Of a DNA stretch of 64,000 bases, positions 2,896 through 39,534 are shown piece by piece (the stretch's first letter is position 1; each line of letters opens with the position of its first letter). Under the pieces are notes generated by a model that worked only from the letters and a program-made list of their open reading frames with translations, was not told where the DNA came from and did not search any database. Location: IMG/VR virus record IMGVR_UViG_3300037244_000020, positions 26,838-90,837 of that record; one strand, 5' to 3'. The stretch is from a virus. The translations under genes and the position numbers were made by a program.

Positions 2896-2931
2896 TCTTT
2901 AAATCGCTTTGTAGAGAGGATTGGCGCAGCG

Positions 2932-3546
2932 TTAGATGTCCACCATTTCCGGGGAAAACTCCAGGGGCGTGGCTTGAACGCCTCGAATCGGTTCTGCGCC
3001 CAGGGCTACCATGCTCTGCCCCTTTGGAAGCGCAGCCTTCGGTTTCTGTGCCGTATCGGCAGGTTCTGGTGCGGTGCCGCCTAGAGCCTTGATCGCAGCA
3101 TCAATCCTCTCGCGCTCGGTCGTCAGCCAGCCAATCTGCAGCGTTCTAATCATCGTCTCTGACGGCGGCCACTCTTCCGACTCGATCGCGGGAAGCATCA
3201 CGGCGCGCAGCCACCTATGGAAGTGGATAGCAGGGCCGTAGGCGGCTTCGGACCAGTCGTCGGTACGTGAGGCAGGGGTAGCGGCGAAGAGGCCCTCACG
3301 GGTCACGCATTTGCGCGGGTAACGCTTCCCGGCGAAGGGGAGAGTGCGAATCTCTACTTCGTCGCATGTGGGGCGCATGCGATCAGGGCATTCATACAGC
3401 AGCGCTTGCGCCAGTTCGGTGAACGGGAAGAAGAATTCGCCATCACAGCGTACGGCGGTCACGGGGTGAGTGTGCCCGTCATGGGCGGGGTAAGTGAGTG
3501 TGAGGGTGTCGGAGGGGGTGATCATGGTTTCTTGGGTGGGCCTCAT
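2932..3546 (-). CDS. Bro-N/antirepressor-like DNA-binding protein
   Basis: DGEFFFPFTELAQAL, VTREGLF, FHRWLRAVMLPAI resemble Bro-N. Confidence 0.65.
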   Translation of the reverse strand: MRPTQETMITPSDTLTLTYPAHDGHTHPVTAVRCDGEFFFPFTELAQALLYECPDRMRPTCDEVEIRTLPFAGKRYPRKCVTREGLFAATPASRTDDWSEAAYGPAIHFHRWLRAVMLPAIESEEWPPSETMIRTLQIGWLTTERERIDAAIKALGGTAPEPADTAQKPKAALPKGQSMVALGAEPIRGVQATPLEFSPEMVDI

Positions 3547-3896
3547 TCCGGGGTACCTACGAGGATCATGGATTTGCAGCCAAGGGCGACTACTTCGAAT
3601 TCCGAGAGTTTGCGCGCCTTTTGATCAGGCTTGAGCTTGGCGCCGTACGTGATCAGGATGCGGACACCTTCCTCAGTGACGACACCCCAGGCGGTCGCGC
3701 CTCGCACACCTCGGACATAGGTTAGACAGGGCCACTTCCCAGAGACGCCACTAGCGCTACTCTGAGAGTAGCCTAGCCAGCGCGCGATATCAGAGGCGAC
3801 AAAAATCAACTGCCCGCCTGCCAGCGCGCATCGTATCTGTCCAGGGCCGTCCTTAAAGACGTAGGGCACGCTCATGAACTCGGGGATGTCACGCAT
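3543..3896 (-). CDS. Bro-N-like protein
   Basis: FVASDIARWLGYS...VVTEEGV. Confidence 0.65.
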   Translation of the reverse strand: MRDIPEFMSVPYVFKDGPGQIRCALAGGQLIFVASDIARWLGYSQSSASGVSGKWPCLTYVRGVRGATAWGVVTEEGVRILITYGAKLKPDQKARKLSEFEVVALGCKSMILVGTPE

Positions 3897-4716
3897 GAGC
3901 GGTCTCCACTCGGCTCGTCTTGGCTTTCTGGTCAGCGCGCCACTTACGGGCGCGTTCTATAGCTTTGAGGCGGCGGTCTTCGGCGCGTGCCGGGGCCGTC
4001 TTCGCACTTCTGATCTTGCGCAGTTCCCCCTTTATGGCGAGGATTTCGGCTCTCTTCTCTCGCTCGATAGCCCGTGCCTGCTCATCGGCTTTGACATCTT
4101 CAGCGATCAGTAACCAGGTGGGCGGCTTTTTCGGCGCGTTTAGGCGGTCAAGCCTCGCTTGCATGCGTCTGGACCGGGGGATCTGGTCAACAGGCACCTC
4201 AAGACTCCAGTACTTGTGGCGCGACTGCCCCCGGCGATCCCGCTCGCGGGCTAGCTGAAGTACGCAGTCCTCGGGGGACTGTGCGTCAGGGTCGTTCAGC
4301 GCTTTGCCACTTTCCCAGTAGATACGCAGTGTCAGGTACGCGATGCGTTCGTCCATCTGCAGGAAGTTTTCCGCAGCTTCTTCGGCGTGGCGTTGTAGGT
4401 GTTCGTATTGGTCAGTATCGTACGCCGCGTTTGCCAGTTTCTGGCGCTGCAGCGCATGACCCCAAGACACGTCCTTCTTTACCCTGGCCTTCGCACGGCG
4501 TACGTAGAGGGAGGGGCTTACTTTGCTGGACATGCGCGTTCCTTGCCCTGTGACGATGGGCCTTGGCAGGCCCTGCATAAGGTCAGGGGGCCTTTGCAGG
4601 CCGCCCATCGTCACAGGACCCTTATGTTTAGCTTGTTCCCTGTGTATCTGCCAAGATTTGCAGGGGGCTTTAAGGTTCGCAGCGCTTTGCACGCCGCGTT
4701 CGGAAAGGTAGGCCAA
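3889..4716 (-). CDS. Hypothetical basic protein (start uncertain, possibly 4533)
   Basis: Long ORF coupled to the downstream Bro-N genes. Confidence 0.55.
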   Translation of the reverse strand: MAYLSERGVQSAANLKAPCKSWQIHREQAKHKGPVTMGGLQRPPDLMQGLPRPIVTGQGTRMSSKVSPSLYVRRAKARVKKDVSWGHALQRQKLANAAYDTDQYEHLQRHAEEAAENFLQMDERIAYLTLRIYWESGKALNDPDAQSPEDCVLQLARERDRRGQSRHKYWSLEVPVDQIPRSRRMQARLDRLNAPKKPPTWLLIAEDVKADEQARAIEREKRAEILAIKGELRKIRSAKTAPARAEDRRLKAIERARKWRADQKAKTSRVETAHA

Positions 4717-4968: not shown

Positions 4969-5410
4969 TTAGCTGCATTCAATGTAGGCTAATGCCTATT
5001 TTTTAAGCACCGCTGCCTAATTTTTAAGCATTAGCCTACATTGAACGTAGCTAGGTTTTGCCTATTTTTTAAGCATTAGCCTACATCAATGTAGGCTAAT
5101 TCGGGTTTAGCCTACATTGATGTAGGCTAATTTAGGGTTAGCTGCATTCAATGTAGGCTAGTTTCCTTACAAAGCTGAGAGAGGCTCCCGAACGCCGTTG
5201 TAAGGAAACTCATGAGTGGCGTGAAAACAACGGGTTTTTAGCTGCACTCAATGTAGGCTAATGCCCGATTAGCCTACGTCAATGTAGGCTAATGCCTATT
5301 TTTTAAGCAAAAGCTAGCCTACGTCAATGTAGGCTAATGCCTATTTTTTAAGCAGGTGAGCGGAAAGCGTGCCTATTTTTTAGGCATTAGCCTACATTGA
5401 ATGCAGCTAA
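4969..5410. repeat. Iteron-like array of two interleaved motifs (candidate origin or protein-binding platform)
   Basis: About 9 copies of the quasi-palindrome TAGCCTACATCAATGTAGGCTA and 6 copies of TGCCTATTTTTTAAGCA. Confidence 0.85.
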
Positions 5411-6361: not shown

Positions 6362-6553
6362 TTATTCGGTCGCTGCGATCGCGTCCCGCATTTCGTTGTA
6401 ATCCATCGCGCGTACCTCGATCATTACCGCGATACGTTCCTCAAGACCGGCGACACCTTGCAAGCGGCGTTGCATCAATTCCGCGCGCATCGCTGCAGCT
6501 TGCGGAACTATCCAGTTACAGTCTTGGCGGGTACGTTCGTTAATCCGGGTCAT
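6362..6553 (-). CDS. Small hypothetical protein
   Basis: MTRINER..., same leader, directly after a promoter. Confidence 0.65.
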   Translation of the reverse strand: MTRINERTRQDCNWIVPQAAAMRAELMQRRLQGVAGLEERIAVMIEVRAMDYNEMRDAIAATE

Positions 6554-9672: not shown

Positions 9673-10191
9673 TTAGACGTGTTTCCAAGTCTTGCGCGTG
9701 CGGATCGCGTGGACAGTCACATTCGACACACTGTAGCGCGCGCCCAACACTCTGTTCGTGTCCCTTGACAAACGAATATCCCTCACATCCTGATCTGTCA
9801 GCGACGATTTGCCGGACCGTTCGCCTCGTAGCGCCTGGCGGCACGTTGCAGCAGTCTGTATAGCGTCTGCGTGCGTTCCCCAGCGAAGGTTGCTGATGCG
9901 ATTGTCCGCGTAATCACCATTGGCGTGCAAGCCTGATAAGCCATCAGGACACGCGCCTGAAAACGCTTCCAACACTAAGCGATGAACCAGAAACCGCTGA
10001 GTCACGCTGTCTTTGCACAGTGTTACCTGCCAACGACCTTGATTGTTCTTGCCAGGTTTCAGCAGTTGCTTCGGTTTGCGTGTGCCAGATGCTGTCGCTT
10101 CGGCGGTCAGTCTAACCAAGCTGCGAACACGACCATCGTCGCTGACCTGGTACAGACCGATGTAGCTGATAACGTCTCGCCATTGTTCCAT
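9673..10191 (-). CDS. HNH homing endonuclease (NUMOD4 N-terminus)
   Basis: EQWRDVISYIGLYQVSDDGRVRS; VHRLV...H.NG...DNRISNLRW. Confidence 0.85.
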   Translation of the reverse strand: MEQWRDVISYIGLYQVSDDGRVRSLVRLTAEATASGTRKPKQLLKPGKNNQGRWQVTLCKDSVTQRFLVHRLVLEAFSGACPDGLSGLHANGDYADNRISNLRWGTHADAIQTAATCRQALRGERSGKSSLTDQDVRDIRLSRDTNRVLGARYSVSNVTVHAIRTRKTWKHV

Positions 10192-10390: not shown

Positions 10391-10637
10391 TAGTTCATTG
10401 ACAACGGACTGACCTAAGCAATGACATGAATAGATTGATCATGACCTCGATCGATGCTGACCTGACCAAACGATAGCTTTGGCAGTCACGATGACCGTGT
10501 TGCGGTCATCGATGCGCTCGGCCTACCCCCACCCCCCTTTTTTGCTCGGCGCGGCGCGTGGTATCCTCGCGTCTGTGGTATGTCAAGTTTTTCGAGTTTG
10601 TCACATTACAATAAGCTTACAGCGGGGTAACGAGAGC

Positions 10638-11366
10638 ATGACCTACGATTGCAAAGATCTGACCGAGCGGCAGCGCAAGTTCTGCGAAGAGTACATCGTA
10701 GACCTGAACGGACGCGCCGCTGCCGAGCGCGCTGGCTATGCCCCGAACGGCGGCCAGGTCACGAACCTTCTCAAGCTCCCGCACGTCAAGGCATACGTCG
10801 ACTATCTCAGCGACGAGCGCGCCAAGCGTGTCGGCGTGACTTCCGACTTCATCCTAGAGCGCCTGCTCGCCATGGCGACGGTCGACGTCAACGACCTCGT
10901 CCAGTACCGACGCCACTGTTGTCGACACTGCTACGGCGAGGACTTCCGATATCAGTGGACCGACGCTGAGTACGAGCGCGCCGTCAAAGAGGCCACGGAC
11001 CGTCACCTCCCCATCCCCGAGGCACCTGGCGGAAACGGCTACGACCGCACCAAAGACGCCAACCCCGACTGCCCAGAGTGCCGTGGACAGGGTAAAGGCG
11101 AGGTGTTCGCTGCCGACACGCGCAAGATGTCACCTGAAGCGAAGATGTTGTACGATGGCGCCAAAGTGGGCCGCGACGGCTTGGAGATCAAGACGCTCGA
11201 TCGGCTGCGCATTTACGAACTGATCGGTAAGCACATCGGCATGTTCAAGGACAAGGTCGAGCACAGTGGCAAGATCGAGAATACCGGCCCGGTGCTGAAC
11301 TTGACACTCGCTGCGCCGCCGGGGACGAAGATCGCGGAAAATTCCCAAGAACCCACCAAGGAGTGA
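10638..11366 (+). CDS. terS: Terminase small subunit with Cys-rich insertion
   Basis: LTERQRKFCEEYIVDLNGRAAAERAGY; ELIGKHIGMF; CCRHC/CPEC. Confidence 0.9.
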   Translation: MTYDCKDLTERQRKFCEEYIVDLNGRAAAERAGYAPNGGQVTNLLKLPHVKAYVDYLSDERAKRVGVTSDFILERLLAMATVDVNDLVQYRRHCCRHCYGEDFRYQWTDAEYERAVKEATDRHLPIPEAPGGNGYDRTKDANPDCPECRGQGKGEVFAADTRKMSPEAKMLYDGAKVGRDGLEIKTLDRLRIYELIGKHIGMFKDKVEHSGKIENTGPVLNLTLAAPPGTKIAENSQEPTKE

Positions 11367-11635: not shown

Positions 11636-12073
11636 ATGTCCCGCGTCCCTCCCAGAAGCTGGAACGAAACGTTCGGCACAGCCTACGAGCACCTCAAAGC
11701 TGGCCGACGTGCAGCGCGCCTTGGCTGGAACAGCAACCGGGTGTGGCTCGAAGCCCTAAGCGATACCGCGACCGTCATCCTGCATAAGGACGGCGTGCGC
11801 ACCGACTGGGTGCCGGATGCGGGCGATCTCATCAGCAACGATTGGCATGTCTTCCCACCCCTTGAAAGGAGCTTAACCATGACCACCACGCCTAGCAGAG
11901 AAGCCCGCGAAGTAGCAGCAAGCCGCCTTAGTCCCGCCAGCTACGCGAACGTCGACGACTATATCGCGGCCGTCGACAAGCTCGCTCGGTATATCGAGCA
12001 TGGCAACTTTAAGGACACCGACAACCAGCCACACGTCACCGCAGCAGTCACGAATGTGATGAATGTTCGGTAA
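11636..12073 (+). CDS. DUF2829-like (Tad2-family) protein with C-terminal extension
   Basis: FGTAYEHLKAGRRAARLGWN...WVPDAGDLISNDW; internal SD and ATG at 11879. Confidence 0.65.
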   Translation: MSRVPPRSWNETFGTAYEHLKAGRRAARLGWNSNRVWLEALSDTATVILHKDGVRTDWVPDAGDLISNDWHVFPPLERSLTMTTTPSREAREVAASRLSPASYANVDDYIAAVDKLARYIEHGNFKDTDNQPHVTAAVTNVMNVR

Positions 12074-12218: not shown

Positions 12219-13070
12219 ATGACAGACCAGACAAACTGGCCCAAACGCGGTGACGGCATTTGTGGCATCTACGCGATTGAAAATCTCATCGACGGGAAGT
12301 TCTACGTCGGGCAGTCTGCGGACATGAGATCAAGGTGGGACGTTCACCTTTATATGCTCAGAAAAGGAACGGCGAGCACGAAATTGTTGCGCGCATGGCG
12401 AAAGCACGGTGCGGAGAATTTCAGGTTCTTTGCCGTGGAAGAATGCTCAGTCGAAGATCTTACAGCGCGAGAGCAAGCGTGGATCGACACGTTCGACGCT
12501 GTGAAGAAGGGCTACAATATCAGTCCCTTGGCGAATTGCACGCGCGGGGTGAAGCACACGGCCGAGGCCCGCGCTAACATGTCAAAGGCGCAACTTGAGA
12601 TAAACTCACGCCCCGGCGCAAAGGAGCGACGAGTAGCTGTGGCAACGAAGGCTTGGGAAGACCCGGATGCTTTAGCCCGAAAGAGCGCGGCCAGCAAGAA
12701 ATCAAGGAACAAGCCAGAGGCAAAGGCCAGGCAATCCAAGGTATCAAAGGACCAGTGGGCAGACCCGGAAGGCAGGGAGCGTCGTCTGGATGCCTTAGTA
12801 AAGTGGTGGGCAGACCCTGACGCGAAAGCTAGTAGGCTAATGCTCCTGCAGAGTGGACGCACCCCAGAGGTAGAGGCGCAAAGGAAGGAGGCCGCAAAGG
12901 CAGCGAGGAGAGCCAGTGCGATCCTCGCTGTGGAAGACGTCTTGGAGATCCGCGCCAGATACGTATTCCGATGTCCGGCAAATGGAGGGAAAGCACTCGC
13001 AAAGGAGTTCGGAGTGTCCAACACGTACATCAGCAACATTATCGTGCGAAAGGTTTGGAAGGACATCTAA
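12219..13070 (+). CDS. GIY-YIG homing endonuclease
   Basis: CGIYAIENLIDGKFYVGQS..R..H; REQAWID; GYNI; helical repeats; C-terminal HTH. Confidence 0.9.
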   Translation: MTDQTNWPKRGDGICGIYAIENLIDGKFYVGQSADMRSRWDVHLYMLRKGTASTKLLRAWRKHGAENFRFFAVEECSVEDLTAREQAWIDTFDAVKKGYNISPLANCTRGVKHTAEARANMSKAQLEINSRPGAKERRVAVATKAWEDPDALARKSAASKKSRNKPEAKARQSKVSKDQWADPEGRERRLDALVKWWADPDAKASRLMLLQSGRTPEVEAQRKEAAKAARRASAILAVEDVLEIRARYVFRCPANGGKALAKEFGVSNTYISNIIVRKVWKDI

Positions 13071-13110
13071 TGCTACAATGCGGGAAATTAAGCTACAAAG
13101 GCTCCCCGCA

Positions 13111-14583
13111 ATGAATTTGAGTCTTCATCAACGCCAATCAGAAGCTTTCACTTCGAAAGCGACGGAGATTTTGTATGGGGGCGGGTGGTGCCTCTGCTAG
13201 AAGGTTTGGCAGAGGCACCACCCGCCTTCTTCAATGAGCGCCGCAGGCGGAGGCAAGTCCCATTTGCTTCGCGTAGCGTCGATCGCATGGTGTGCCGACA
13301 TTCCGGGCATCCAAATAGCCCTGTTCCGCAGGCTCAGTGACGACATCACGAAGAACCATTTAACTGGGGTTTCCGGGTATCCCGAGCTTCTGGCCGACTG
13401 GGTGAAGGCAGGGCATGTGAAAATCAATTTTTCGGCCCGTACAATAACTTTTTGGAACGGGTCGAAGATCCATCTTTGTCACTGCCAGTACGAGTCCGAC
13501 GTATCGAAGTATCAGGGAGCAGAGTTCCAAGTTGAAATGTTTGACGAGGGAACCCACTTCTCCGAGACCATCTACAGGTACCTGCGAGGGCGGCTGCGCA
13601 TGGGCGCACTGAAACTCCCGGAAAAGTATGTTGGGATGTTTCCCCGGATTTTGATAGGGTCGAATCCTGGATCGGTCGGGCATGCCTGGGTCAAAGCGTC
13701 TTTCGTTGACATGGCGCCCCCGATGGAACTGGTGCAAATGCCGAAAAACGAAGGGGGTCTCATTCGGCAGTTCATACCCGCGAAACTGGAAGACAACCCG
13801 ACGTTGATGGAAAGCGATCCGATGTATGCGGATCGCTTGGAGGGTCTCGGTCGACCTGAACTCGTCAAAGCCCTTCGTGACGGGGACTGGAACATAGTTG
13901 CAGGGGGTATGTTCGACGACGTGTTCTCTACTAAGCACCAAGTTCTTGCCCCCTTCGAGATTCCTCGCACCTGGAGGATCGACAGGTCATTTGATTGGGG
14001 TTCAGGAAAACCCTTCGCGGTGTTGTGGTTCGCCGAGTCAGACGGGTCGTCCGTTCGCCTTGCAGACGGCTCCGAGCGTAACTTCCCACGAGGGTCGATC
14101 TTCCAGATCTCTGAGTGGTATGGCAGTAACGGCAAACCCAATGAGGGTCTGCGCATGATGAATGCGGAAATTGCACGCGGCGTGAAGGAGCGCGATTTAG
14201 CTATGAAGCGCATCGTCCATGCTGGCCCCGGCGACAACTCGATAAATGACGTAATCAACGGCACGAGCATTGCAGACGAGATGGCGCGTGCGCCGAATTA
14301 CATCCGCTGGACGCCATCTGACAAGAACCCAGGCAGCCGGAAGCACGGGTGGGACATCCTGCGAAAGCTGCTGAAGAACGCAATTGATAGGCCGCTGGAA
14401 GAGCCGGGTTTCTACATTTTCGACACCTGTCGAAACACGATCCGTACGCTTCCGGTCTTACCTCGCCACGCCACCAAAGACGGGGATCTTGACTCCGACG
14501 CGGAAGACCATATTGCAGATGCAATTCGCTACCGTGTCTCCGCCAAAAAACGCACGATGACCGTCAGCGGCCTCGCTATATAA
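13111..14583 (+). CDS. terL: Terminase large subunit, interrupted at ~13183-13239 by a 57-nt hairpin with an in-frame TAG (13198-13200); the downstream part is an ORF at 13234-14583
   Basis: 5' part LHQRQSEAF...TEILYGG and 3' part AAGGGKS, FDEG (Walker B), GSNPG, FDWG, EDHIADAIRY lie in the same frame. Confidence 0.85.
13180..13226 (+). other. Perfect 18-bp hairpin inside terL (putative recoding element)
   Basis: GGCGGGTGGTGCCTCTGC-TAGAAGGTTTG-GCAGAGGCACCACCCGCC. Confidence 0.85.
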
Positions 14584-14607: not shown

Positions 14608-16161
14608 ATGACCGTCAACTTCACTGCGACGACCCCTGAGGGGTTTCCGCCACCAGTCCAACAACTGATTCAAGGCAATGCTAACGACGTGCGCGAACCA
14701 AGCCGCGTCGTGCAGAACATGATGGTCAACTGGCTCAAGGTCACGACGTTGCTCGGCGGCACCAAGGCGATGCGGGAGGCTGCGACCATCTTCCTCCCCA
14801 AGTGGCGCCGGGAAGAGCCGAATGACTACGCGCTGCGCCTGAAGACGACGGTGTTGTTCAACTGCTTCGGCCATACGGTAGACGGCCTAGGCGGCAAGCC
14901 TTTCGTGCGGCCGCTGGGCTGGTCGACGGATATGTCTCCAGAGGTTGAGGCGTGGTTCCCCAACATCGACCTGACGGGTCGCAGCTTTCACGTCTTCGCG
15001 CAGGAAGTCTTCAAGTTCTCACTTGCCTACGGCCTGTCGCATGTGCTGATTGACTATCCGGTGACTGCGGGGAAGGTGCGTACCGTCGCTGATGAAAAAG
15101 CGATCGGCGCCCGCCCCTACCTAGTCCACGTCAAGGCCAACCAGATTCTCGGCTGGCGCTCGACGATGAAAAATGGCGGCGAAGTGCTGACGCAAGTTCG
15201 CATCCTTGAGACCTGCGAAGTGGAAGATGGCCCGTTTGCCACGCGAACCGTCGAGCAGGTCCGCGTGTTGGAGCCGGGAACGTGGACGACCTACCGGCTA
15301 AAGCCCAAGCAGGCGCTTGTCACTCAGATCAGCCCGTCATCCAATGATCCGCAAGAGTGGGCGGTGTTCGATAGCGGCACCACGTCGCTCGACTACATCC
15401 CGCTCATCACTTTTTACGCACGCCGTACAGGTTTCATGACGGCGGACTCGCCGCTAATCGACATCGCGGACCTGAATATCCTGCACTGGCAGGTCGGGTC
15501 AGACATGTATTCGGTGCTGCACACCGCGAGCGTGCCGATTTTGACGATCACCGGCGTCGAAGGCAATGACGATGGCGAAGCGACTCTGGAAATCGGCACG
15601 GCGTCGGCGCTGAAGTTACCACAGGGCGCAACGGCACGCTTTACAGAGCACAGCGGGAAGGCTGTCGGGTCGGCGCTGACCGCACTCGGCACGATGGAAG
15701 AGCAGATGCGTCTGCTCGGTGCCGAGTTGCTTGTGAAGAAGCCGGGGCAGGCGACCGCGACGCAGGCTACGCTCGACACGAGCCAGCAGCGGTCGGAACT
15801 CCAGGCTATCACTAGCGTATTCGAGGATACGTTGGATCAGATCGTCGGGGTCATGGCGGCATGGGGCAATATCCAGAACTTCACGGGCAACATGCAGGTC
15901 TATGACGACTTCCTGCTCGCGGCCGACGACGCGGTGCAAGAAGCGCTGCTATTCTCGATCGTGACGGCAGGTCTGCTCTCGCCGCAGTCGTTCTTTGAAG
16001 CCATGCAGCGGCGTAACGTGTATGACACTGACATGACTTGGGAGCAAGAGCAGGAGCGTATCAAGGCGCAGCCGCTGCCAGCGCCGTCCCTGCTGCAACC
16101 GAAGGTGGCAGGCATTCCGAAGGTGGCGTCAAGTTCTACTTTGGCGCAGTTGAGTGATTGA
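14608..16161 (+). CDS. Portal protein (DUF4055-like)
   Basis: LLGGTKAMREAATIFLPKW..E...Y..RL; SPLIDIADLNILHWQ; follows terL. Confidence 0.85.
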   Translation: MTVNFTATTPEGFPPPVQQLIQGNANDVREPSRVVQNMMVNWLKVTTLLGGTKAMREAATIFLPKWRREEPNDYALRLKTTVLFNCFGHTVDGLGGKPFVRPLGWSTDMSPEVEAWFPNIDLTGRSFHVFAQEVFKFSLAYGLSHVLIDYPVTAGKVRTVADEKAIGARPYLVHVKANQILGWRSTMKNGGEVLTQVRILETCEVEDGPFATRTVEQVRVLEPGTWTTYRLKPKQALVTQISPSSNDPQEWAVFDSGTTSLDYIPLITFYARRTGFMTADSPLIDIADLNILHWQVGSDMYSVLHTASVPILTITGVEGNDDGEATLEIGTASALKLPQGATARFTEHSGKAVGSALTALGTMEEQMRLLGAELLVKKPGQATATQATLDTSQQRSELQAITSVFEDTLDQIVGVMAAWGNIQNFTGNMQVYDDFLLAADDAVQEALLFSIVTAGLLSPQSFFEAMQRRNVYDTDMTWEQEQERIKAQPLPAPSLLQPKVAGIPKVASSSTLAQLSD

Positions 16162-38850: not shown

Positions 38851-39534
38851 ATGCTTACATACTCGCTCGTCGCAAACAGCGCATCAATCCAACGCTCGGA
38901 TGGCGCGTTTATCCCCGCCGACCCGAACAACACCGACTATGCGAACTACCTCGCATGGGTCGCTGCGGGTAACACCCCAACACCGCAGCCCGGCACCCCC
39001 CTTGCTACTGCACAGCAACAGCAGGTCACCACGATCTCAAACGCGTGTCAGGACGCGATCTACTCAGGCTTTTCATCCAGCGCGCTCGGCGCGGTTTATC
39101 ATTACCCAGCGCTGGACCGGGATCAGTCGAATCTGGCGGCGGCGGTCTTCGCCGCGATCTCGGCAGGGCAGAGTACCGTGGTATGGGTGGCGAGTACGCT
39201 TTGCCAAGCCGGCATGCTAATAGCCGCGAATGGGCAGATTAACATCAACCTGACGAAAGGCACGTGCGGGCCTTCCGCGCCTACGTGGCCTTCTACTGTA
39301 GGTACGATCGCTCTCGACGGCGCTGCAACGTGGGAGATATGGACGACACCGCTCTGGTGCCGAAACCAGAGCGGTGTCTGGTCGCTGCAGCAACACACGT
39401 CTTCGCAGGTCCAGCAAGTAGGCCAAGACGCCTTGACAGCCCGCACAACTTATCAGGCAAAGAACGCGGCACTCGCCGCGCAGATTATGGCAGCAACGAC
39501 GGTCACTGCGGTTCAGGCGACAGTGTGGTCGTAA
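38851..39534 (+). CDS. Tail fibre assembly protein (DUF4376-like)
   Basis: IPADPNNTDY..YLAW; GFSSSALG..Y...DQSNL; HT..QVQQVG.D. Confidence 0.7.
   Translation: MLTYSLVANSASIQRSDGAFIPADPNNTDYANYLAWVAAGNTPTPQPGTPLATAQQQQVTTISNACQDAIYSGFSSSALGAVYHYPALDRDQSNLAAAVFAAISAGQSTVVWVASTLCQAGMLIAANGQININLTKGTCGPSAPTWPSTVGTIALDGAATWEIWTTPLWCRNQSGVWSLQQHTSSQVQQVGQDALTARTTYQAKNAALAAQIMAATTVTAVQATVWS

Follow-up and report, generated by a model that had tools for sequence, protein, structure and literature searches.

How can a large terminase be made from a gene whose Walker A motif is split by a stop-containing hairpin? This question is raised by terL in a peat phage genome (IMG/VR virus record IMGVR_UViG_3300037244_000020; 90,837 bp), of which bases 26838–90837, a stretch of 64,000 nt in the following called the window, were analysed. 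In this gene, 57 nt of extra DNA separate the codons for the N-terminal segment from those for the P-loop, and hairpin inserts of similar kind were found in three related terL loci. We read the insert as a mobile, endonuclease-linked coding gap that would be skipped by translational bypass, and give this reading a probability of roughly one half. The parts of the gene on which the argument depends are the following.

13071–13110, plus strand: terL 5′ leader, starting TGCTACAAT, left part of the common cassette patch
13111–13182, plus strand: terL exon 1, 24 codons from ATG 13111, the last being the Gly codon GGC 13180–13182
13177–13229, plus strand: RNA hairpin of 25 pairs including G·U, with a perfect 18-bp core (13180–13197/13209–13226)
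13183–13239, plus strand: non-coding insert (coding gap) of 57 nt; a homologous insert of 54 nt is present in contig L182
13198–13200, plus strand: TAG stop in frame, in the upper part of the hairpin's 5′ arm, 5 codons after GGC
13237–13239, plus strand: AGC, last codon of the insert, which ends ...GAGC; proposed near-cognate landing triplet
13240–14583, plus strand: terL exon 2, from the AAGGGKS Walker A motif to the stop codon (Pfam Terminase_6N)

Translated from ATG 13111, the frame reads ...ATEILYGG, followed by 19 extra codons (GWCLC, TAG, ...SSMS) and then by AAGGGKSHLLR, and the frame of exon 2 stays open for 447 codons, to 14583. Exon 1 aligns with the N-terminus of TerL from the nearest cultured relative, Salmonella phage SE13 (Rosemountvirus), and of more than 100 homologs, while exon 2 is 50% identical to SE13 TerL and 70% identical to the closest metagenomic homologs. 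SE13 TerL reads ...ATEILYGGAAGGGKSHLMR uninterrupted, most of the 120 best database homologs also have an uninterrupted P-loop, and 171 fetched related loci, from which the insert is absent, read ILYGGAAGGGKS. Since the homologs are uninterrupted at this place, the extra DNA is exactly 13183–13239, and deleting exactly these 57 nt gives back the canonical P-loop. An insert of this length splitting terL at Walker A had been proposed in an earlier note on this DNA, made from the sequence alone, and the comparison with homologs bears it out.

The perfect 18-bp inverted repeat described in that note was likewise recovered at 13180–13197/13209–13226, with 0.12 matches expected by chance. As RNA it extends to 25 pairs with an energy of −50.8 kcal/mol (z −7.5), and it is the only copy of this hairpin in the 90,837-bp genome. 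GGC 13180–13182 is the first codon of the perfect stem, which places the proposed take-off codon in the stem-loop's 5′ side. In the centroid fold, a small 6-bp stem-loop (13144–13160, plus strand) lies in exon 1, 20 nt upstream of the take-off codon; it is identical in L182 and thus gives zero covariation information, and it may serve as a 5′ stem-loop. The GCG direct repeat described around the insert stands at 13181–13183 and 13238–13240, but is not conserved (GTG/GCG in L182, where the repeat is 1 nt long, and no repeat in L196 or L229, the other two carriers).

The insert is not an assembly artefact, because four metagenome runs, which belong to three studies, contain the identical sequence. 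It was found in independent Logan contigs of two peat runs at depths of 63 and 164, which may be the source samples, and as identical 151-nt pieces in two soil runs of a different study, one of which corresponds to 13190–13340 and includes half of the hairpin. The genome has direct terminal repeats, is rated 100% complete and has a G+C content of 57.7%. This is its sole terL locus, as a second terL was looked for and none was found, and the search for tRNA and tmRNA genes in the genome gave zero hits. TAG is an ordinary stop codon in this phage and closes 14 of the 77 long open reading frames (ORFs), and the genome has no suppressor tRNA.

An exact-pattern scan of IMG/VR detected the same hairpin in L182, a 12.2-kb contig, and two further inserts are present in the contigs L196 and L229.

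L182:6323–6270, minus strand: insert of 54 nt at the same position as in the window; terL ATG at 6395
L196:3959–4000: insert of 42 nt; 27-kb contig
L229:2977–3018: insert of 42 nt; 49-kb contig binned as Kapaibacterium, equal to L307 and L308

The L182 insert has the same TAG as the window, and its stem base differs by a compensatory change from GGC...GCC to GGU...ACC (C–G to U–A). In L196 and L229 the inserts lie five codons downstream of the window site, between GGG and KS, and the stem begins within 1–6 nt of the take-off codon. These two inserts share the first 12 nt and an identical 11-nt 3′ arm. Different sequence has taken the place of the apical part, which holds TAG in one insert and TGA in the other, and a 2-nt difference in the tail is opposite to the apical indel (+2/−2), so that both total 42 nt. 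Pairing in their upper stem is maintained by one-sided, G·U-compatible changes, which points to selection on RNA and not on a DNA cruciform. The inserts of the window and of L196 are both preceded by GGGGGNGG and have similar starts ([G/V]-W-x-L in the translated frame), and are probably related. At the 3′ end, the insert reads GAGC in the window, L182 and L229, and AGAC in L196. The stems comprise 12–25 bp across the carriers. Together, these inserts (57, 54, 42 and 42 nt) constitute a small family of gaps at two positions of one P-loop in related phages.

Sequence divergence between the carriers indicates that exons and stem are under purifying selection. Exon 1 of the window and L182 shows a synonymous difference of 35% with a ratio of nonsynonymous to synonymous substitution rates (dN/dS) of ~0.2, while their stems differ at only 2 of 36 positions, both compensatory (P 4e-5 against the synonymous rate). 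In exon 1, L196 and L229 show a synonymous difference of 54% (dN/dS 0.13; range over comparisons 0.13–0.22), and all 23 arm positions are identical (P 1.5e-8 against the synonymous rate; 5e-4 when tested against overall nucleotide divergence). Exon 2 contains no stops or frameshifts in any of the four carriers, with dN 0.23 between L196 and L229 (range 0.23–0.28) and dS saturated. In the translated frame, each of the four inserts contains a stop, 4–6 codons inside the insert, compared with one of eight other frames. The 3′ arm nucleotides shared by L196 and L229 are read in different frames, and hence what is conserved in the insert is its RNA, not a peptide. In these two contigs any retained residue would destroy GxxxxGK[ST], so that omission has to be exact; since the P-loop needs exact omission, and purifying selection acts on exons and stem, expression must leave out the insert.

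Other known kinds of elements do not fit the insert. A group I/II intron or known ribozyme is rejected by the size of 42–57 nt without a conserved catalytic RNA core, by the exon/intron ends, which do not fit a group I intron, and by an Rfam search at E up to 10, which returned only microRNA-hairpin look-alikes far below gathering scores; the view that the insert is too small for such an intron is thereby upheld. An intein does not agree with 19 codons including a TAG, as true inteins at the same site have ~370 residues. The hairpin has no T tract and was not scored as a terminator. Recoding in the manner of selenocysteine or pyrrolysine insertion sequences (SECIS, PYLIS) does not match a stop located inside the stem, and readthrough would break the P-loop. 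For an inversion switch, flipping the loop would give an in-frame TAG again.

Further carriers were sought in several ways. Motif scans of 2.2 Mb of related loci gave no additional copy of either hairpin outside terL, a single-protein scan of IMG/VR did not find a close relative of TerL, and alignment-based scans of IMG/VR and metagenomes yielded, among the matches listed, relatives of at most 62% identity, all uninterrupted or intein-bearing. Scans with the homologs P0024 and P0030 revealed no new gap carrier, and a search for short exon-1 ORFs gave one 33-residue Logan protein identical to the exon-1 ORF of L196. Among the 120 closest TerL homologs, ~17 are N-terminally truncated calls starting at the first Met after the P-loop and spread over several sublineages. 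Two of them, P0036 and P0071, were verified as gap carriers; the others include P0005, P0006, P0008, P0011, P0014, P0021, P0024, P0030, P0033, P0065, P0075, P0082 and P0118. A third insertion site, after G27/G28, is suggested by the gene calls P0006 and P0014, with the starts ...RHQT|GGKS and M|GGKS; its Gly landing codon may be a matched one. In IMG/VR, the contig of P0006 (L164:1) begins exactly at GGKS, as if its assembly had broken at an insert.

The proposed mobility of the insert is connected with its gene neighbourhood. Directly upstream of the leader, and in two intein-bearing relatives within the P-loop itself, the following elements were found.

12219–13070, plus strand: predicted free-standing GIY-YIG homing endonuclease gene; ORF open from GTG 12183
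L015:1103–2218 and L220 ~2920–4000: TerL P-loop inteins

The ORF 12219–13070 matches Pfam GIY-YIG PF01541 with 44.6 bits (cut-off 22.6; E 1.8e-11) and phrog_314 ‘homing endonuclease’ with E 4e-27, in agreement with the GIY-YIG gene described beside the insert in the earlier note. It is predicted to be a free-standing homing endonuclease gene between conserved phage genes, and ends 113 nt before the insert. In ~17 uninterrupted relatives, terS overlaps terL by ~20 nt and nothing lies between them. L182 has an HNH_3 endonuclease gene upstream of terL (E 4.7e-13; phrog_99 E 1.7e-63), and L196 an ORF that is weakly GIY-YIG-like (21.3 bits in Pfam, slightly below the cut-off; phrog_314 E 1.3e-5). 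L229 has no endonuclease gene upstream of terL, and L165, whose terL is uninterrupted, has an EndoVII-like ORF at this place. An endonuclease gene is thus directly upstream in three of the four carriers versus one of 21 uninterrupted relatives (Fisher p 0.007, kinship ignored). No homolog of the window GIY-YIG protein was present in any other fetched locus, and pairwise BLAST against the upstream ORF of L196 gave zero similarity.

The window and L182 share 85–90% nucleotide identity over ~13075–13240 (~165 nt; leader, exon 1 and insert), compared with ~61% in exon 2, and the shared patch begins a few bases beyond the stop codon of the endonuclease gene. For exon 1, identity to the window is 85% in L182 but only 51–74% in every other relative, and for the terL leader it is 85% in L182 and 80% in L165. 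This leader of ~40 nt (CTACAATNCGGGAAATT...), in which no canonical sigma-70 promoter was scored, precedes terL at 13071–13110 in the window, 6396–6438 (minus strand) in L182 and ~3880–3919 in L165, and follows three endonuclease families, namely GIY-YIG (window), HNH (L182) and EndoVII-like (L165, without hairpin insert). We read the shared patch as the trace left by lateral movement of a cassette that comprises leader, exon 1 and hairpin, and in which the endonuclease was exchanged. The earlier suggestion that insert and endonuclease spread together is supported as regards lateral movement of the patch but not as regards a fixed endonuclease partner, which is GIY-YIG in the window, HNH in L182, weakly GIY-YIG-like in L196 and absent in L229. 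In L015 and L220, inteins of ~370 residues lie between GGGK and S of the TerL P-loop and end ...THN|S, and because these inteins occupy the same P-loop, its DNA is a hotspot for homing elements.

Two other genes were noticed near terS. A second free-standing homing endonuclease gene (HNH_3 and NUMOD4) is located upstream of terS at 9673–10191 on the minus strand, with a 60% identical copy in L185 and L186. A Tad2-like (Thoeris anti-defence) gene is found at 11636–12073 between terS and the GIY-YIG gene, and a similar one at L165:2737–3012.

By which route, then, would the insert be skipped? In the bypass that we favour, a ribosome with peptidyl-tRNA-Gly on GGC 13180–13182, at the foot of the hairpin, would let go of the mRNA, move past the hairpin, pair again with the near-cognate AGC 13237–13239 and restart decoding at GCC 13240; the joined product would contain the junction peptide ATEILYGGAAGGGK. 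Non-hopping ribosomes would end at TAG 13198, so that no P-loop-defective TerL would be made. The insert probably also disrupts the P-loop coding DNA targeted by homing endonucleases and inteins, by which the carrier genome would be protected. Bypass is favoured because a GGY Gly codon stands at the 5′ foot of the stem-loop (take-off codon GGY in all four carriers), accompanied by an in-frame stop and an endonuclease cassette. It is also favoured because the last insert codon (AGC, AGC, AGC and GAC in the carriers) keeps two of three pairs with the anticodon GCC, and because one insert type has GGAGG before this codon, at a distance of 9 nt in L196 and 7 nt in L229.

Several features weigh against this reading. 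The take-off and landing codons are unmatched (GGC/AGC in the window, GGU/AGC in L182 and L229, GGU/GAC in L196), and if the hop were a matched one, to the next GGY, the P-loop would be non-canonical. The stop lies 4–6 codons into the insert, unlike the gene 60 stop, which adjoins the take-off codon, and the 25-bp stem far exceeds the A-site stem-loop of gene 60; with GGC in the P site, the ribosome would already have opened most of the 5′ arm. The window-type insert has no Shine-Dalgarno-like motif 5–9 nt before the landing site, where gene 60-type bypass has one ~6 nt 5′ of the landing codon, and in the window and L182 there is only a GAG, which overlaps the landing triplet. The nascent peptide of only 24 residues has no evident resemblance to the gene 60 signal. 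The link to endonucleases is loose: more than one family is involved, no such gene precedes terL in L229, and in L165 one is present although the insert is absent. Finally, all four insert lengths are multiples of three, for which ~1 in 81 would be expected if length changes were independent; such lengths, reached at 42 nt via compensating +2/−2 changes, are not required by a hop and are explained neither by bypass nor by RNA excision. Two variants of the hop were tried and rejected. A matched hop from G24 to G27 (GGC–GGC in the window, GGU–GGU in L182) gives YGGGGKS and is inapplicable to L196 and L229, and take-off at the codon before the stop has no cognate landing site and would add 4–6 residues to the P-loop.

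The same comparative facts call for exact removal if the hairpin is cut from the terL transcript and the exons are rejoined before translation, be it as a mini-intron or by an endoribonuclease and a host ligase. Such RNA excision would agree with the conserved RNA-level structure and make matched codons unnecessary, and all eight junctions are pyrimidine|purine, although this is a post hoc observation. We nevertheless consider it unlikely. The inserts of 42–57 nt match no Rfam family and lack a ribozyme core, the phage genome was searched for RtcB and RNA ligase and encodes none, and, with the 3′ junction 6–13 nt beyond the stem, pairing in the stem leaves the two junctions apart. That stops are enriched in the translated frame agrees with ribosomes entering the insert, but such stops would also limit the damage from unspliced mRNA. 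We know of no programmed mRNA splicing of such a kind in bacteria, which also counts against excision.

Less probable still is that the insert is not skipped at all and terL is dead, with a defective or selfish genome using TerL of co-infecting insert-free phages or rare insert-free copies of its own. Minority variants would be invisible in contigs, homing cassettes are able to spread despite a cost, and the 3-nt GCG repeat around the window insert could allow rare precise deletion; however, L196 and L229 do not have this repeat, and in L182 it measures only 1 nt. Moreover, the genome is complete with direct terminal repeats, abundant (depth 63–164) and recurs in another study, and four lineages keep their exons open with purifying selection and conserved stems, where a dead gene would decay.

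Readthrough of the stop, giving a functional TerL with 14–19 extra residues at the P-loop, would account for the four insert lengths divisible by three and for a frame kept through compensating indels. It is very improbable, since TAG closes 14 of 77 long ORFs in a genome without tRNA genes, the inserts of L196 and L229 between GGG and KS ruin GxxxxGK[ST], and their 3′ arm is conserved as RNA and read in different frames. Restart at ATG 13234–13236, which directly precedes AAGGGKS in the window and would yield an N-terminally truncated or two-piece TerL, can hardly be credited. L182 has ACG there and lacks any ATG, GTG or TTG from the stop to Walker A, and the active TerL from Met 13234 considered earlier is thereby refuted. 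In L196 and L229, moreover, a restart is possible only after the P-loop glycines, exon 1 is under purifying selection, and no Shine-Dalgarno motif precedes 13234.

To our knowledge, efficient long-range ribosomal bypass is represented by essentially one system, T4 gene 60 with its topoisomerase homologs, plus the yeast mitochondrial byps. It is a tentative proposal, somewhat short of an even chance, that the terL inserts represent a second, distinct form of bypass with unmatched codons or a new bacterial cut-and-rejoin process on mRNA, and that they form an undescribed class of small hairpin elements which home to the Walker A coding sequence of phage terL genes and are portable shields against homing endonucleases and inteins. 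If bypass is true, an independent family would exist in the best-conserved motif within the best-conserved gene of phages, and coding gaps would be a recurrent solution in the conflict between phage and homing endonucleases. The carriers would also offer natural variants in sites, stem sizes, stops and unmatched codons for dissecting take-off and landing, and a class of truncated or split terL calls in viromes would be explained, as ~15% of the 120 closest homologs are without N-terminus. Removal at the RNA level, if that is the route, would mean a new type of mRNA processing in bacteria.

For orientation, the genes flanking the locus are listed here together with two further structures of the window.

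10479–11366, plus strand: terS, small terminase (Pfam Terminase_2, E 4.9e-24)
14608–16161, plus strand: portal gene (Pfam DUF4055, E 1.6e-35), placed as in SE13
5075–5131: nested palindrome, intergenic between two minus-strand ORFs, in which two 26-bp palindromes lie side by side and jointly make up 25-bp arms; possibly an operator or origin-like site
39345–39378: perfect 14-bp hairpin with a 6-nt loop inside the ORF 38851–39534, whose frame stays open; this DUF4376-containing ORF is probably tail-related

A literature search found the gene 60/MobA and Hau3 terminase cases and nothing on hairpin gaps in the terL P-loop. The TerL P-loop inteins of L015 and L220 share the Walker A hotspot, mobility, the association with homing endonucleases and the need for exact removal. 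Unlike the terL insert, with its 19 codons, its stop and its conservation as RNA structure, they are in-frame protein domains of ~370 residues removed by protein splicing.

Byps are mobile, short G+C-rich hairpin inserts of 27–55 nt in conserved coding sequence, and unless they are skipped the protein loses its colinearity. They occur many per genome and in many genes; their take-off and landing codons match, and the take-off codon is immediately followed by a stop or unassigned codon. The terL gap resembles them as a short hairpin insert in conserved coding sequence that has to be skipped for colinearity, but is single-copy and confined to the terL P-loop, with no other copy in the 2.2 Mb of related loci. 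The byp elements of Magnusiomyces capitatus mitochondria are summarised in PMC10732093 and bioRxiv 10.1101/2022.08.31.505936. A candidate bypass within a phage large terminase gene, likewise recognised from exact extra blocks relative to homologs, is the UUA-triggered 10-nt bypass of Streptomyces phage Hau3 (PMC10732093). In contrast to the hairpin gap, the Hau3 blocks, 10 nt in length, cause a frameshift, open with UUA, a rare codon, and lie at other protein positions, without a large hairpin or a link to an endonuclease.

The terL insert can also be compared with T4 gene 60, whose 50-nt gap belongs to a MobA cassette (bioRxiv 10.1101/2022.08.31.505936). The two differ in the host gene, which is terL (P-loop) and not a topoisomerase gene, and have no sequence homology. 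In terL the codons are unmatched, the stop is 4–6 codons downstream instead of adjacent, the stem has 12–25 bp versus a small A-site stem-loop, a recognisable nascent-peptide signal is lacking with 24 residues at take-off, all inserts are multiples of three, and bypass is proposed from sequence. In common with gene 60, a short stop-containing non-coding gap interrupts an essential conserved coding segment, with a Gly take-off codon at the 5′ side of a stem-loop and a free-standing homing endonuclease gene just upstream. In some clades of the gene 60/MobA cassettes, the endonuclease is replaced by GIY-YIG or VSR (bioRxiv 10.1101/2022.08.31.505936). As in gene 60, the terL element appears to bring its own copy of the adjacent coding sequence and to move laterally, and the gap can persist when its endonuclease is lost or gives way to one of another family.

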